Made by a program: the position numbers and the translations under genes. A DNA stretch of 64,000 nucleotides from contig NZ_JBNGZE010000002.1 in NCBI RefSeq assembly GCF_052049855.1, positions 211,798 to 275,797 of the forward strand, written 5' to 3'. This stretch comes from Candidatus Pelagibacter sp. (lineage in GTDB: Bacteria > Pseudomonadota > Alphaproteobacteria > Pelagibacterales > Pelagibacteraceae). Shown piece by piece: positions 17,869 through 36,295 of the stretch (within the stretch, counting starts at the first letter, position 1; every line of letters begins with the position of its first letter). A model generated the notes under the pieces. That model was given only the letters and a program-made list of their open reading frames with translations. It searched no databases and was not told the origin of the DNA.

Positions 17869-19963
17869 TATAGCTACTATTTTACCTTATAAAGAAAATT
17901 ATACATACGATAAAGCATCTGCTGCATCATTGTGGGTTTCAGAATTTTTTAAAAAATCTAAATACAAAAAAAATAATATTATTTATGGTCACACAAAATC
18001 AAAAAAATATTTAAGTAAAAATTATAAAAACATAAGTTTAAAAAATTTAAAATCCAAATTAAAAAGTACTACAAACGAATATGCAGTAAAATTAACAAAA
18101 GAACTAATTAATAACAATTTTGATATTGTAGAAATTCATAATAGACCACAATTACTCTTTAAATTAAAAAACAAAATTAAAAGTAAATTTATTTTTTACT
18201 TTCATAATGATCCACTATCAATGAAGGGATCAAAAACTATAAAAGAAAGATTAAAAATATTAGAAACTGTCGAAAAAATAATATTTGTTAGCGAATGGGT
18301 TAGAGAAAGATTTTTCCATGATATAGATCAAAAATTACAAACTAAAACTGAAGTAGTTTATCCAAGTGTAAATAAACAAAAAAAAATAAAAAAAGAAAAA
18401 AACATAATTTTTGTAGGAAGATTAAATTACTCTAAAGGTTATGATATTTTTAAAGAAGCTGTATTAAATATATTAGACAAATTTCCTAAATGGAAAGCTT
18501 ATTCATTAGGCGATGAGGATAGAAGAAATATTTATATTAATCATCCAAGACATAAAGAGCTTGGATTTGTTAATCATAAAAAAACATTGAATATTTTAAA
18601 CAAATCAGAAATAGCAGTAGTACCATCTAGATGGGAAGAACCATTTGGCAGAACATCATTAGAAGCTACATCTAGAGGTTGCGCTACAATAATAAGTAAT
18701 AGGGGGGGGTTAAAAGAAACTACTGATAGTGCAATTACTTTAAAAGATCTAAATTCAAAGGAACTTTATGATGAGATTAAAAAAATAATTATTAATAAAA
18801 AAAAAAGAAAATTATTACAATCTTTAGGTAGAAAAAATATTAAACACAAAATAAGTGAAAACACAAAGCTTATTGATCAAATTCGAGAAAGTTGTGTTCC
18901 CTTTTTTAATGTTAATTTAATTAAAAAGAAATTAAAAATAATTAATTTATATAATCAAGGTCAGAAACTTAATCACAGACTCTATAATATCTCTTTAGGC
19001 AAGAAATTTACTAATGGATTTGTTAGAAACGGTCATGATGTTTTAGAGATTAGTGATAGAGATTATCTAAGGAACAATAAGTCTTTTAGTTTAATTCCAA
19101 ATAAAAATAATTTTCAAAAGTTTTTAATAGACACTTTTAAAAACTATAATCCAGATATAATTTTTTTTGGACATACAAGGAATATTGAAATAAGCACATT
19201 AAATGAATTTAAATCAATAAATAAAAATCTTATTATATCTCAATGGAATGAAGATCCTGTTATGCCTAGTCTAAATTATTCACTTAAAAATATTTCAAAT
19301 ATTAAAATGTATTCTGACATAGTTGATCATAATTTTATAACCACTGATCCGTCAATTTTTAATAACAAAATTTCTAGAAAGAATTTTAACTTTTTTTTTA
19401 TTCCTGTAGATAAAAATATTGAGAGTTTTGATGTATTTAATATGAAGCCTAAAAAAGATTTATTTTATGCAATGAGTCATGGAGTTAACAGAGCTACACT
19501 TAAAGAGGGTGTCGAAGATGAAAGAATAAATTTTCTTGATAAACTAGTTAAAAAAATTCCTAATATAAAATATGATTTTTATGGATTTTCAAACAAACAA
19601 CCAATATGGGGCAATGACTTTAACAATGCGTTAATTAATTCAAAAATGGGCTTAAACTTAAGTAGAGGCAAACCAACCAAATATTATTCTAGCAATAGAA
19701 TTGCTTCGATAATGGGAAATGGATTACTTACATTTATTGATGAGAAGGTTCAAATGAAAGATTTTTTTAATAAAAATGAAATTATTTTTTATAAAAATAT
19801 TAACGATTTAGCAGATAAAATTAAATTTTATGCAAAAAATGATAGAATTAGGGTCAAAATTGCTCGTAATGGTAAAAAAAAATACTTTAAGCTTTTTAAT
19901 GAAACTAAAATTTCAAAATATTTTATAGATATATCCTTAGGTAATAAAGTATCTTTATTATAA
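17846..19963 (+). CDS. Fused two-module glycosyltransferase (N-terminal GT4-like, C-terminal CgeB/Glyco_trans_1_2-like)
   Basis: FVGRLNYSKG and VVPSRWEEPFGRTSLEA (GT4); second module with SKMGLNLSR...SNRI...IMGNG. Confidence 0.8.
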   Translation: MNLKKNLNIATILPYKENYTYDKASAASLWVSEFFKKSKYKKNNIIYGHTKSKKYLSKNYKNISLKNLKSKLKSTTNEYAVKLTKELINNNFDIVEIHNRPQLLFKLKNKIKSKFIFYFHNDPLSMKGSKTIKERLKILETVEKIIFVSEWVRERFFHDIDQKLQTKTEVVYPSVNKQKKIKKEKNIIFVGRLNYSKGYDIFKEAVLNILDKFPKWKAYSLGDEDRRNIYINHPRHKELGFVNHKKTLNILNKSEIAVVPSRWEEPFGRTSLEATSRGCATIISNRGGLKETTDSAITLKDLNSKELYDEIKKIIINKKKRKLLQSLGRKNIKHKISENTKLIDQIRESCVPFFNVNLIKKKLKIINLYNQGQKLNHRLYNISLGKKFTNGFVRNGHDVLEISDRDYLRNNKSFSLIPNKNNFQKFLIDTFKNYNPDIIFFGHTRNIEISTLNEFKSINKNLIISQWNEDPVMPSLNYSLKNISNIKMYSDIVDHNFITTDPSIFNNKISRKNFNFFFIPVDKNIESFDVFNMKPKKDLFYAMSHGVNRATLKEGVEDERINFLDKLVKKIPNIKYDFYGFSNKQPIWGNDFNNALINSKMGLNLSRGKPTKYYSSNRIASIMGNGLLTFIDEKVQMKDFFNKNEIIFYKNINDLADKIKFYAKNDRIRVKIARNGKKKYFKLFNETKISKYFIDISLGNKVSLL

Positions 19964-20911
19964 TTTTACTTTATTCAATGCATTATTTTTAAATATATTT
20001 GCCTCTTTAATATACCTTCTTACCATTTGGGTAGTTTTGTGACCCGTCATAGCCATTATACTTCTTTCATCAGCACCAGAATCTGCTGCTACTGTTGCAA
20101 AACCAGATCTTAAACTATGACCTGAAAAATTTTTATTTTCTATACCTGCCGAGTTTAAATATTCTTTAATTAACAAAACAACAGATTGATCAGTTAATCT
20201 TTTATTCGTTAATGACAAACCTTTAGAAAATCTTCTGAAAATTGGTCCAGACTTAATTTTAGAAATTTTTAACCATTTTTCGAGATTTGAAACAGGGCAA
20301 TAAATTTTATTCGTGAGGAAGGGCAGTCCTTTAACCATTCCCTCACCAAATTGGTCAGTTTTTGATCTTTTAATCCTAATTTTAAGACCTTCAGGAAAAA
20401 ATTCCAAATCCTCATAATCGATTGAAATGAGTTCTGATCTTCTAAAACCTCCCCCAAATCCAATTAAGATTAGTGATTTGTCTCTTAATTTTTTTATTTC
20501 TTCAGTTTTTTTTTCATTTATTACATTAATAATTGATTTTAAATGACTAATTAAAATAGGTTTTTTGCCGTTCTGAATGCTCCCTTTCACTCTTCTTATT
20601 CCCATTAAATTCTCAACGATGATTGGATGTTTGGTATCTAGATAATGGCCTTTTAGCTTATGAACCACACTAATTGAAACTAGTCTTCTTCTCAAAGTAC
20701 TTATTTTTGAATTTTTAGAGAGATGGGTAATGTATAATGAAACAATTTTTGGTTCAGTTGGTAAAGAATTTAAGCCATGTTTTGTACAAAATGCTCCAAA
20801 ATCTTTAAAATCAGATTTATACGCTCTTAGTGTATTATTCGACTTGGAATTTTTTAGGTTATTTAGAGTTGCTTCATGTAGAGATTTTAAGTCTGTTGTT
20901 AGCTCAGTCAT
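19958..20911 (-). CDS. Tyrosine recombinase, Cre-like
   Basis: N-terminal SAM-like domain (NTLRAYKSDF, STLRRRL); catalytic R (GFRRSEL), K (RSKTDQ), HxxR (GHSLRSG), H (TGHK), Y (MVRRY). Confidence 0.92.
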   Translation of the reverse strand: MTELTTDLKSLHEATLNNLKNSKSNNTLRAYKSDFKDFGAFCTKHGLNSLPTEPKIVSLYITHLSKNSKISTLRRRLVSISVVHKLKGHYLDTKHPIIVENLMGIRRVKGSIQNGKKPILISHLKSIINVINEKKTEEIKKLRDKSLILIGFGGGFRRSELISIDYEDLEFFPEGLKIRIKRSKTDQFGEGMVKGLPFLTNKIYCPVSNLEKWLKISKIKSGPIFRRFSKGLSLTNKRLTDQSVVLLIKEYLNSAGIENKNFSGHSLRSGFATVAADSGADERSIMAMTGHKTTQMVRRYIKEANIFKNNALNKVKL

Positions 20912-20913
20912 AT

Positions 20914-20950
20914 TATTACTATTGATAACATTTAATTATCATTACTAATA
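20914..20950. repeat. Imperfect inverted repeat, 15-7-15; candidate recombination or binding site
   Basis: TATTACTATTGATAA-CATTTAA-TTATCATTACTAATA; arms complementary at 13 of 15 positions. The repeat is observed; the function is inferred. Confidence 0.7.
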
Positions 20951-20973
20951 TATCAAGTATTTTATAATGTCAA
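20945..20973 (-). promoter_or_regulatory. Possible sigma70 promoter for the recombinase
   Basis: Minus strand TTGACA (20973-20968), 17 nt, then weak -10 TATTAG (20950-20945), inside the right repeat arm. Confidence 0.35.
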
Positions 20974-21028
20974 ATAAAATAATTTATAAACTTAAAGGAC
21001 AATTAATGACATTGTGTGGACAATAAGT

Positions 21029-33166: not shown

Positions 33167-35258
33167 CAGCTAGTAGTAAAAGAGCTACAATATTTGTTAT
33201 TTTAATCATTGGGTTTACTGCTGGGCCAGCTGTGTCTTTATAAGGATCTCCAACAGTATCACCTGTAACGGCTGCTTTATGTGCCTCAGAACCTTTTCCA
33301 CCATGATTACCATCTTCTATATACTTTTTAGCATTATCCCAGGCACCACCACCTGCAGTCATTGATACTGCAACAAACAAACCTGTGATAATAACACCAA
33401 GTAACATTGCACCAACTGCAGCTAGGGCAGCAACTTGTCCACCAATAGATAGAATTATAAAATATAAAACAACAGGAGATAAAACTGGTAATAGTGATGG
33501 TATAATCATTTCCTTAATAGCAGCTACAGTAAGTAAATCTACTAATTTTGCATAATCAGGTTTTTGTTTTCTTTTCATAATACCAGGGAATTTTTTAAAT
33601 TGTCTTCTTACTTCAACAACGACTGCACCACCGGCTCTTCCAACAGCTTGCATTCCCATGGAGCCAAAAAGATAAGGTAACATCCCACCAATTAATAAAC
33701 CAACTACTACGTAAGGGTTAGATAAATCAAAGGTCACTACAATACCTTCTAATGCGGATCCTGCCTCTTTTGAAAAATGCTTGATGTCCTCAGTGTATGC
33801 AGCGAATAAAACTAAAGCACCTAATCCAGCAGAACCAATTGCATAGCCTTTTGTAACGGCTTTTGTAGTATTTCCTACTGCATCTAAAGCATCAGTTGTT
33901 TTTCTAACTTTTTTATCAAGATTAGACATTTCAGCAATACCACCAGCATTATCAGTTACAGGTCCGTATGCATCTAAAGCAACAACCATACCTGCTAAAG
34001 CAAGCATTGTAGTAACAGCAATAGCAATACCAAAAAGTCCTGCAATTGAGTTTGTAATAAGAATACCAGCAACAATTATCAAAGCAGGAATAGCAGTTGC
34101 TTCCATTGAAACTGCTAATCCTTGAATCACGTTAGTACCATGTCCAGTTGTTGATGATAATGCAACAGATTTAACAGGTCTATAACTTGTTCCAGTATAG
34201 TATTCAGTTATCCAGATCAATAATCCAGTTATAACTAACCCTATAACACCACAATAATATAAATCCATTCCATTAAAAGTTTTATCATTTACTGTAAATT
34301 CATTTGTAAAACCAATTACGTGATCTGTAACTGGCCATAATATTACTAATGAAGCTACTGCAGAAACAACAAATCCTTTATACAAGGCGTTCATAACATT
34401 ATTACTTCTACCAAGTTTAACAAAAAATGTTCCAACAATTGATGTTAGTAAGCATGCTGCACCAATAGATAAAGGGTAAATCATCATATTAAGATCACCA
34501 ACAAAGAAAATTGAAGACAAAACCATTGTTGCAACAATTGTAACAGCATAAGTTTCAAATAAATCTGCAGCCATACCTGCACAATCTCCTACGTTATCTC
34601 CAACGTTATCTGCGATTACAGCAGGGTTTCTAGGATCATCTTCAGGTATTCCCGCTTCAACTTTTCCAACTAAATCGGCACCAACATCAGCACCTTTTGT
34701 AAAAATTCCCCCACCTAATCTTGCAAAAATTGAGATTAATGATGCACCAAAACCTAATGCAACTAAAGCATTTACAATTTCTCTTTCATCTACATTAGAC
34801 TTTAATAAAATATAATAATAAACTGCTATAGATAATAATGCTAAACCAGCAACCAACATTCCAGTAACAGCACCAGATTTAAATGCAACAGAAAGACCTT
34901 GGGCTAAGCCTTTTCTTGATGCTTCCGCTGTCCTTACGTTTGCCTCTACAGAAACTAACATTCCCACATAGCCCGCAATACCTGACAAAGCAGCACCTAT
35001 TAAATAACCCAGACCTACTAGAGGACTAAATGCAATACTTACGATTACTAAAACTACAGCACCAACAATAGCTATAGTTTTGTATTGTCTTGCCAAATAT
35101 GCTTTTGCACCAATTTGAATTGCAGCTGCAATATCTTGCATTTTTGCATTTCCTGCACTTGAATTTAGAATATTTTTACCAGTTAAAAATCCATAAACGA
35201 TAGATAATAAACCAGCTCCGATTGTGTATAATAGTATTGTTTCAACTGTTCCGCTCAT
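33153..35258 (-). CDS. hppA: Membrane-bound H+-translocating pyrophosphatase, K+-independent signature
   Basis: [30 protein letters not shown] (Lys form), [11 protein letters not shown]. Start set at ATG 35258. Confidence 0.95.
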
Positions 35259-35335: not shown

Positions 35336-36295
35336 CTAAAACTGATGAATATAACCTTTAGATTTAGCTTGTATTTGCTTGCCTTTTTCATCAAATATCA
35401 ATGATCTGTCCTTACCAGATATAATTTTTCCAATTTTAGTTATTTTAATTCCAGTTGTTTTAGAAGCGTGTTGAATGATTCTAGCTTTATTAACATCTGC
35501 AGTAAATAAAACTTGATAATCATCTCCGTTAGAAATTAGATTAATTTTATTTAATCTTTGTTTTTTAATTAAATTACTCAGTTTTTTAGAAACAGGGATT
35601 TTGTTTTCGAATAAGTGAAAAGATAAAGTTTGTCTATTTATCATTTTTAACAAATCATCAATTAATCCATCTGAAACATCAATCGAACTATTAGCAAATT
35701 TTAATAAATATTTTGATAAATTTATAGGTAAGTTTGGTTTATAATATTTGTCTACGAAGAATAATTTATCTTTATTTTTAATTTTAGCTTTATTACTTAA
35801 TACTTTTAATCCGAAATAGCTATCACCCAAATTTCCAGTAACATAAATATCATCATTTAATTTAGCTTTATTACGATAAATTATTTTATTCGAATATCCC
35901 ATTGATATAATTGTAAAACTTAGTTTATTTGAAAAAGTTGTATCTCCACCACATAAATCAATATTAAATTTATTTTGTTCTGATTTAAGTGACTTTGAAA
36001 TTTTATATAAATTTTTTTTTGTAAATGTTTTTTTATTACCAGAACCAGAAATAAAATAAAACTTTGGTTTTACACCTTTGCAAATTAAATCAGAAATTGA
36101 TGACCTTAATATTTTTTTAATTACTAAATCTGGGTATTTAAAATCAATAAAATGAGTACCAATATTATATGTGTCAACAGATATTACAACACCTCTTTTT
36201 TTATCAAAAAACACATCGTCATTAAGATTAAGAGCAAATTTATTTTTTTTAGCTAATTTAAAAAAATAATTATTTATTAAATCAAATTCATACAT
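35336..36295 (-). CDS. thiL: Thiamine-monophosphate kinase
   Basis: [29 protein letters not shown]. Confidence 0.92.

Follow-up and report, generated by a model that had tools for sequence, protein, structure and literature searches.

A candidate domesticated Cre/lox-type module at the replication terminus of SAR11 bacteria

The resolution of chromosome dimers by a single recombinase is already known for XerS, XerH, XerA, and XerL; a system of this kind with a Cre-type enzyme as its basis would be new. We have analyzed a stretch of 64,000 nucleotides from Candidatus Pelagibacter sp., a SAR11 bacterium of the family Pelagibacteraceae (NCBI RefSeq assembly GCF_052049855.1, contig NZ_JBNGZE010000002.1, positions 211,798 to 275,797; referred to as the window), in which the gene of a Cre-type tyrosine recombinase adjoins an inverted repeat with the anatomy of a recombination site. 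All conclusions are computational. The closest described systems, and the features that they have in common with this locus, are the following. (i) Cre/loxP of P1 consists of one recombinase and, near its gene, one site in which perfect or near-perfect inverted arms of 13 to 15 bp flank an asymmetric core, as in SAR11. When placed in ter, Cre-loxP replaces XerCD-dif in Escherichia coli, where FtsK translocation and the FtsK-orienting polar sequences (KOPS) are needed for simple synapses (PMC2680272). (ii) SCre and VCre are Cre-type recombinases that were shown to recombine 13-8-13 sites, SloxP and VloxP, without accessory factors (PMC3082901). (iii) In XerS/difSL of streptococci and lactococci and in XerH/difH of Helicobacter and Campylobacter, a single recombinase has replaced XerCD, and the site sits at the terminus and adjoins the recombinase gene, a hint that both were acquired together as a module; the SAR11 locus resembles them in these respects. 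(iv) XerL/dif of the Legionellales is a single-recombinase system that was missed by homology searches, and its dif, like the SAR11 site, has long uninterrupted inverted arms and a location near the maximum of the GC skew; a mobile element that carries a mimic of this dif makes use of it (PMC9765430).

The SAR11 locus also differs from each of these systems. Unlike Cre/loxP, the SAR11 module is chromosomal and found at a natural terminus, in a free-living bacterium without XerCD; its site has a 7-bp nonpalindromic core and overlaps the putative promoter and the leader of the gene, and the identity of the protein to Cre is only ~21 to 26%. SCre has an identity of 25 to 27% with the SAR11 protein and of 31.5% with Cre. 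SloxM1, from Shewanella sp. ANA-3 plasmid 1, reads CTCGTGTCCGATA-ACTGTAAT-TATCGGACACGAG (PMC3082901). SloxP has the inner arms TCCGATAA / TTATCGGA in common with one of the two SAR11 site types (type B, see below), whereas SCre/SloxP is plasmid-borne, with the site ~4.4 kb from the gene and a GATA-TATC spacing that is one base shorter. The Xer group is set apart from the SAR11 proteins by a fully supported long branch in our tree. With the XerS model NF003462, the SAR11 protein scored 46.7 bits (cut-off, 267) and was matched in its C-terminal half only, and the SAR11 arms are far more symmetric than those of XerS/difSL and XerH/difH. In Legionella pneumophila, xerL and dif are >400 kb apart, and XerL is a larger protein with the catalytic residue Y389 (PMC9765430). 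XerL, XerH, and XerS were compared by hidden Markov model scores and literature, outside the tree, and XerL was set beside the SAR11 protein by its published description.

We propose that recombinase and site constitute a Cre/lox-type module that has been domesticated, that serves to resolve chromosome dimers as a substitute for XerCD/dif, and that probably also acts as a repressor at its own promoter; we put the probability of this reading at about 0.8. It draws on the anatomy of the site, its conservation, its single copy, and its position at the terminus, on the absence of XerCD, and on the kinship of the protein to Cre and to plasmid recombinases. Much the same reading, a Cre-family dimer-resolution module replacing XerCD/dif, had been suggested in a first-pass annotation of the window and is supported by these data.

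Kinship of the recombinase to Cre and to plasmid proteins

The recombinase gene is an uninterrupted open reading frame (ORF) that encodes 317 amino acids (Table 1). Profile searches identified a C-terminal Phage_integrase domain (PF00589; 73.8 bits, with a cut-off of 27.1) and an N-terminal SAM-like domain (PF02899; 25.5 bits), and the motifs RSKTDQ and SGHSLRSG are located at residues 182 to 187 and 263 to 270, respectively. In an alignment of 39 family members, R157, K184 (within RSKTDQ), H265 and R268 (both within GHSLRSG), and Y300 are invariant, and H291 is near-invariant (at least 90% conserved). Both the catalytic residues and the C-terminal catalytic domain thus identify the protein as a tyrosine recombinase of PF00589. 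In two closed genomes (G084:C1:571219-572134 and G113:C1:595396-596348), the recombinase is split into two overlapping frames and the site is still present; each split gene is either a frameshift pseudogene or the product of a sequencing error.

A comparison of the family profile with Cre using hhalign gave a probability of 99.6, an E value of 4e-24, and a score of 168 over 274 columns, as compared to 1e-15 and 110 for E. coli XerD and 2e-11 and 83 for XerC. The kinship to Cre extends over both domains and is closer than that to Xer. Maximum-likelihood analysis groups the SAR11 proteins in a single clade (support, 99) within a plasmid family, which is separated from XerC/D by a long branch with a support of 100; Cre falls on the side of the family, at the end of a very long branch. 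Judged by the profiles, the tree, and the comparison with SCre/SloxP, the label "Cre-like" is justified, and the protein does not appear to be a Xer recombinase. The first-pass annotation had described an intact tyrosine recombinase with Cre-like motifs and had placed it in a Cre-like family; frame, motifs, and catalytic residues were all confirmed, the profiles place the protein nearer to Cre than to XerC/D, and in the tree the long Cre branch is on its side of the split from XerC/D.

A search of cluster representatives retrieved 2,617 clusters with E <1e-30, mostly of ~320 amino acids and with 35 to 46% identity, which are annotated at their source as "site-specific integrase" and nothing more. 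Using tblastn, relatives with 35 to 42% full-length identity were found on at least 1500 PLSDB plasmids from many phyla. This plasmid family shares with the SAR11 proteins the motifs NTxRAY, SKTDQEG, GHSLRSGFAT, and RRYIR and differs from them in its location on plasmids and in its unrelated spacers. Four plasmid relatives were examined. Two of them adjoin toxin-antitoxin genes, as in a plasmid maintenance region, and three have a lox-like site with CGATAA inner arms 70 to 220 bp upstream of the gene. The sites read TAACTTCCGATAA-CGCCCCCT-TTATCGGAAGTTA, with an 8-nt spacer, on the Skermanella plasmid, TCTAACGTTCGATAA-TGTGTTC-TTATCGAACGTTAGA on the Protochlamydia plasmid, and TAATGTCCGACAA-ATTTAC-TTGTCGGACATTA on the Rickettsiales plasmid. 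The Skermanella arm TAACTTCCGATAA resembles that of loxP, ATAACTTCGTATA. Presumably, these relatives resolve plasmid multimers, and the SAR11 module has the look of a multimer-resolution cassette of plasmid origin that was domesticated. In addition to SCre, its plasmid in Shewanella ANA-3 (NC_008573.1) encodes two members of the SAR11-like plasmid family (204,006-204,869 and 255,754-256,620; 32 to 34% identical to the SAR11 protein), so that several Cre-type recombinases can be present on a single plasmid.

Anatomy and conservation of the site and its putative promoter

The repeat at positions 20914-20950, TATTACTATTGATAA-CATTTAA-TTATCATTACTAATA, is of the 15-7-15 type with 13 of 15 arm positions paired, and it lies 2 nt from the recombinase start codon (20909-20911), on its upstream side; coordinates and pairing are as given in the first-pass annotation. 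The sequence thus has the two inverted arms of ~13 bp, the asymmetric core of 6 to 8 bp, and the proximity to the gene that characterize Cre-type targets. In this 1.3-Mb genome with a GC content of 29%, 15-7-15 repeats with at least 13/15 pairing occur 29 times. Because of these repeats of equal quality and of another one that adjoins the site, the repeat alone is not significant, and its significance rests on conservation, single-copy status, and position. The adjoining repeat (20951-20988; 15-8-15, 87% complementary) abuts the site on its upstream side, in the region of the putative promoter, with which it overlaps; it is probably due to chance, since this region varies in other genomes. A Fur box was considered and rejected: TGATAA...TTATCA is present with a spacing of 7 nt and not 3.

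The repeat was found upstream of the gene at all 67 loci for which the 5' end was available, mostly 1 to 3 nt from the ATG. The orthologs at site-bearing loci range down to 50% protein identity, and the DNA beyond the repeat, further upstream, differs among genomes. There are two types of site, namely, type A (ATTACTAAYGATAA-TTAATTG-TTATCAATAGTAAT) and type B (TTTCCGATAA-TTAATGG-TTATCGGAAA), the latter a perfect palindrome; the spacer is TTAATTG at 45 loci and TTAATGG at 14, and relatives carry perfect arms of 10 to 15 bp. Among 42 distinct site sequences, (i) the inner GATAA is invariant, (ii) position 8 is symmetric in every case (A/A in 28, T/T in 14), and (iii) positions 6 and 7 change jointly between types A and B. 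Loss of the repeat with retention of the ORF, which the first-pass annotation had named as evidence to the contrary, was thus not seen at these loci, and the arms change symmetrically. Among the 11 SAR11 sequences of the recombinase tree, two subclades correspond to the two site types and cross genus labels; arm type thus tracks the recombinase subclade, which is the pattern expected if the protein reads the arms. Subclades and site types disagree with the genus labels at loci L064 and L081 (genus g5) and at L005, L022, and L076 (genus g1), which suggests either that whole modules were exchanged among lineages of SAR11 or that there are two alleles of ancient origin.

The site is present in a single copy. 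Even with 9 mismatches allowed over the 37 nt, no further match was obtained in the window genome, and a 17-nt core occurs about once per genome, adjoining the gene, in 183 of the 201 genomes of the family. Two exact copies in genome G186 were considered as a possible integrated element, which was rejected, as they belong to the ends of two contigs that share an overlap of 2,069 bp (99% identity).

At most aligned loci, TTGAC(A) is found at a near-constant distance upstream of the site. Type B loci have TTGACA-17-TAATAT or TATATT, and the putative -10 abuts or overlaps the outer arm. A consensus promoter scan of the window did not list the TTGACA promoter, its -10 hexamer or spacing being off consensus, and the call is based solely on cross-genome conservation. 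The site putatively spans the transcript start and the entire 5' leader of the recombinase gene, and, because it covers the promoter-proximal region and the leader, bound recombinase would probably repress its own gene. This location also raises the question of whether the repeat is solely an operator, bound by the recombinase or by another regulator, with the recombination target lying elsewhere or lost. A repressor would act precisely between the putative -10 and the ATG, and the spacer is conserved beyond the need of strand exchange between identical sister sites. We nevertheless consider this explanation very improbable, since there is no second site in the genome, the inner arm recurs in the site that SCre recombines, phages have copies of the site but not of the gene (see below), arm type covaries with the recombinase clade, and the similar repeats of three plasmid relatives lie at a distance from the start codon. 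Autoregulation is compatible with recombination and is more an addition to dimer resolution than a rival to it.

Absence of XerCD/dif, distribution, and position at the terminus

The window genome is a 1.305-Mb assembly in 8 contigs that is 99.85% complete. It contains only two PF00589 genes, which encode the module recombinase and a phage-type integrase of 446 amino acids ~90 kb away, and neither of these two tyrosine recombinases approaches the XerC and XerD models. The module recombinase scored 78.6 bits against a cut-off of 329.6 for XerD and 66.3 bits against a cut-off of 335.15 for XerC. A genome search for dif (28 bp, 11-6-11, XerD arm TTATGTTAAAT, 2 mismatches) resulted in 9 matches versus 18 in the control, none of them dif-like. 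With one gene, scores below equivalog level, and no dif, the locus is not of the XerC/XerD-with-dif type; as in single-recombinase dimer resolution systems, there is a lone recombinase without XerCD. The first-pass annotation had regarded a complete xerC/xerD/dif set elsewhere in the genome, or a patchy distribution of the gene, as incompatible with its proposal, and neither was found.

The distribution was surveyed in 151 Pelagibacterales genomes of at least 90% completeness. Within the Pelagibacteraceae, exactly one ortholog, of 50 to 90% identity and without a second Xer-like match, was present in 129 of 137 genomes, including all 42 single-contig genomes of the family. The eight genomes without the gene are all drafts of 20 to 70 contigs, which also lack the site and XerCD. 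In the sister family (f2), 12 of 13 genomes have XerC/D-like matches with ~28% identity. Five of these genomes were tested; XerD was matched over its full length with 314 to 322 bits and XerC with 300 to 315 bits, and the dif-like ATAATATATATTATGTMAAAT was found in four of the five. A dif-like conserved sequence of this family, YATAATATATATTATGWMAAAT, is located at G025:C2:154721, G037:C2:47532, G029:C3:155749, and G027:C2:75861.

A comparable arrangement was seen in MarineAlpha5_Bin12, a metagenome-assembled genome of the Alphaproteobacteria (PTKS01000003.1, L191:2460-2500), in which a promoter is followed by a perfect 15-7-15 site and then the ATG. The site reads TATTACTTCCGATAA-CATACAA-TTATCGGAAGTAATA, with a spacer unrelated to that of SAR11, and the recombinase is the sister of the SAR11 clade in the tree. 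Since it is the sole full tyrosine recombinase of this 1.5-Mb genome, the replacement of XerCD may extend beyond the Pelagibacteraceae.

As the nearest relatives are plasmid-borne, a plasmid or mobile element that once integrated could in principle have left the module behind as a selfish remnant, which has no host function and is held in place by synteny. The distribution makes this the least probable of the explanations considered here, hardly to be expected for a module that has apparently been kept vertically across at least 9 genus-level groups with an open frame and 50 to 90% identity, that is single-copy and without flanking mobile genes, and that supplies the sole candidate dimer-resolution recombinase in genomes that keep the FtsK gamma domain.

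In four genomes, which represent three genera, the site was found 0.9 to 2.1 kb from the maximum of the cumulative GC skew (Table 1). On the 635-kb contig of the window genome, which is not centered on the site, the cumulative G-C maximum is at 231,669, the break of a two-segment fit at 231,500, and the site at 232,711; for the other three genomes, stretches of 400 kb were used. Gene orientation flips at the site, with 133 long ORFs on the plus and 36 on the minus strand in the 200 kb to its left and 21 and 58, respectively, in the 100 kb to its right, which confirms a separate first-pass remark on converging genes. In 41 of 42 closed genomes, the module is at 0.40 to 0.50 of the circle from dnaA (genome sizes partly rounded). 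The only closed genome with a different layout is G056:C1, in which dnaA (468,224) and the module (662,148) are ~194 kb apart (14% of the circle). This layout probably stems from a major rearrangement or a problem in the assembly; even here, the site is found at the local maximum of the skew. The SAR11 site is thus a unique, conserved, noncoding site at the terminus, as in single-recombinase systems. A conserved unique recombinase site 1 to 2 kb from the skew switch is the hallmark by which dif is recognized in other lineages, including XerL/dif (PMC9765430).

Proposed function and phage copies of the site

According to our proposal, two recombinase monomers would bind the two arms of ~13 to 15 bp of the single terminus site. 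When homologous recombination has produced a dimer of sister chromosomes, the two copies of the site would meet at the septum, probably via FtsK translocation, and a tetramer would exchange strands across the 7-bp asymmetric central region to give two monomers; on its site, the recombinase would probably also repress its own transcription. FtsK with its gamma domain is kept in the SAR11 genome (100 bits). With one site per chromosome, the possible substrates are the pair of copies that is present in a dimer (or on sister chromosomes) and foreign DNA that carries the site.

Several points weigh against dimer resolution by this module. (i) Among the 7- and 8-mers of three genomes, searched for a polarity that flips at the site, no sharp KOPS-like polar motif was detected; a skew (~60%) was seen only in general words rich in A or purines. 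(ii) Between the conserved GATA and TATC, there is one base more than in loxP or SloxP, which concerns the geometry of cleavage. (iii) Within the family, the spacer is strongly conserved, and the reason could be a role as 5' leader or operator rather than in strand exchange. (iv) The four terminus placements are not independent, since SAR11 genomes are highly syntenic, to which the rearranged replichore of G056 adds a little independence. (v) The two split recombinase genes, if true pseudogenes, would make the function dispensable. Xer is dispensable in E. coli, too.

We found no published description of the module in the full-text literature on Pelagibacter/SAR11 and dif, Xer, tyrosine recombinases, or dimer resolution, in line with the first-pass annotation, to which none was known for SAR11. 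A survey from 2009 cites SAR11 as a free-living organism that has lost dif/Xer (PMC2731167), and in a preprint from 2026, automatically annotated "XerC and XerD" of Arctic Pelagibacterales are merely treated as dimer resolvases. If our proposal is correct, dimer resolution in SAR11 has been replaced rather than lost, and the module would be the first natural Cre/lox-type system to do the job of XerCD/dif, hitherto seen only in engineered E. coli, in the most abundant group of free-living bacteria and a textbook case of genome streamlining. The site would be a precise terminus marker in thousands of SAR11 genomes. Recombinase and site form a compact pair, whose two natural specificity variants, A and B, covary with the protein, and a native site-specific recombination system could be of help in SAR11, which is still without genetic tools.

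Copies of the site are also found in phages. A scan of IMG/VR with the 17-nt core retrieved 48 contigs, by a rough estimate about the number expected by chance, of which only the subset with extended arms is meaningful. This subset comprises ~20 AT-rich contigs, some of which match the host over 34 nt including the spacer, and none of which encodes the recombinase. They are tailed-phage fragments related to Pelagibacter phage HTVC106P and to pelagiphages of the HTVC010P type. On contigs with annotated ORFs, the site lies between terS and terL, and on most extended-site contigs a site with A-type arms stands next to one with B-type arms. In a set of 50,697 phage records, matches to the site were obtained solely in the Pelagibacter phages HTVC106P, HTVC100P, and HTVC035P, where the mimics likewise lie between terS and terL, often as such a pair, and the complete genome of HTVC106P contains no PF00589 gene. 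Lying away from the recombinase gene, the phage copies fit a recombination target better than a mere operator, and the paired sites may reflect hijacking of the host recombinase for cyclization, resolution, or integration. The spacers of the three isolates differ from the host spacer, which fits phage-phage recombination (cyclization or multimer resolution, as with lox in P1) better than integration; metagenomic contigs with host-identical spacers could integrate at the host site. According to the literature, all known temperate pelagiphages integrate at tRNA genes (PMC8477408).

These mimics, among them those of a phage without a tyrosine recombinase of its own, would also be expected if recombinase and site were kept mainly as a docking (attB) module for phages or elements with a site mimic, which integrate there or are cyclized or resolved, dimer resolution being absent or secondary. 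We regard this as unlikely, although less so than the operator and remnant explanations. A module that serves only parasites should have been lost from the most streamlined free-living genomes and is instead near-universal and intact; its exact position at the terminus and its reciprocal distribution with XerCD would be left unexplained; and no phage protein match, and hence no prophage, was found beside the site at 69 host loci. Elsewhere, elements that exploit Xer exploit dimer resolution and do not define it.

A wider scenario combines dimer resolution by the module with the phage data, and we advance it tentatively, at somewhat below even odds. In the Pelagibacteraceae and in at least one further lineage of marine Alphaproteobacteria (MarineAlpha5_Bin12), XerCD/dif would have been naturally replaced by a plasmid-derived Cre/lox system at the terminus. 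Integrase-less pelagiphages, including supposedly strictly lytic types, would exploit the host enzyme via paired lox-like sites by their packaging genes, be it for cyclization or resolution of the phage genome or for integration at the terminus; this strategy would be like that of P1, but with the recombinase outsourced to the host. The module would also offer a new handle on pelagiphage biology, that is, on hijacking of the host recombinase and on possible integration outside tRNA genes.

Table 1. Coordinates of the module in the window, of phage copies of the site, and of skew maxima and sites in three further genomes
Feature	Location	Strand	Remarks
Cre-type tyrosine recombinase gene	19958..20911	-	Intact ORF; PF00589 and PF02899; catalytic R157, K184, H265, R268, H291, Y300
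Gene-proximal arm TATTACTATTGATAA (plus strand)	20914..20928	.	Inner GATAA invariant in 42 distinct sites; positions 6 to 8 change symmetrically with the other arm
Asymmetric 7-bp central region, presumed strand-exchange region	20929..20935	.	TTAAATG on the gene strand
Gene-distal arm TTATCATTACTAATA (plus strand)	20936..20950	.	Outer end overlaps putative -10
Putative sigma-70 promoter of recombinase gene	20945..20973	-	-35 TTGACA 20973..20968, -10 ~20952..20945; inferred from cross-genome conservation
Paired-site phage loci	L145:4100-4260; also L167, L185, L162, L148		IMG/VR contigs
HTVC106P, MN698244.1	~35,380-35,440		Site mimics
HTVC100P, MW273924.1	~34,318-34,390		Site mimics
HTVC035P, MW273923.1	~35,827-35,900		Site mimics
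G041	Skew maximum 771,546; site 773,633		Another genus, 51% protein identity
G088	Skew maximum 427,063; site 426,162		Third genus
G056	Skew maximum 661,169; site 662,148		dnaA only 194 kb away, patchy left replichore

No phage, insertion sequence, or conjugation genes were found beside the recombinase gene when the neighboring genes were inspected, as the first-pass annotation had stated. The neighbors encode a glycosyltransferase, glpX, a SbmA/BacA-like protein, a methylguanine-methyltransferase-like protein, and transporters. The second PF00589 gene of the genome, that of the phage/island-type integrase, is located outside the window (G000:C2:321,005-322,345; L002:739-2079) and is followed by small ORFs without known function; this locus is probably a small integrated element.

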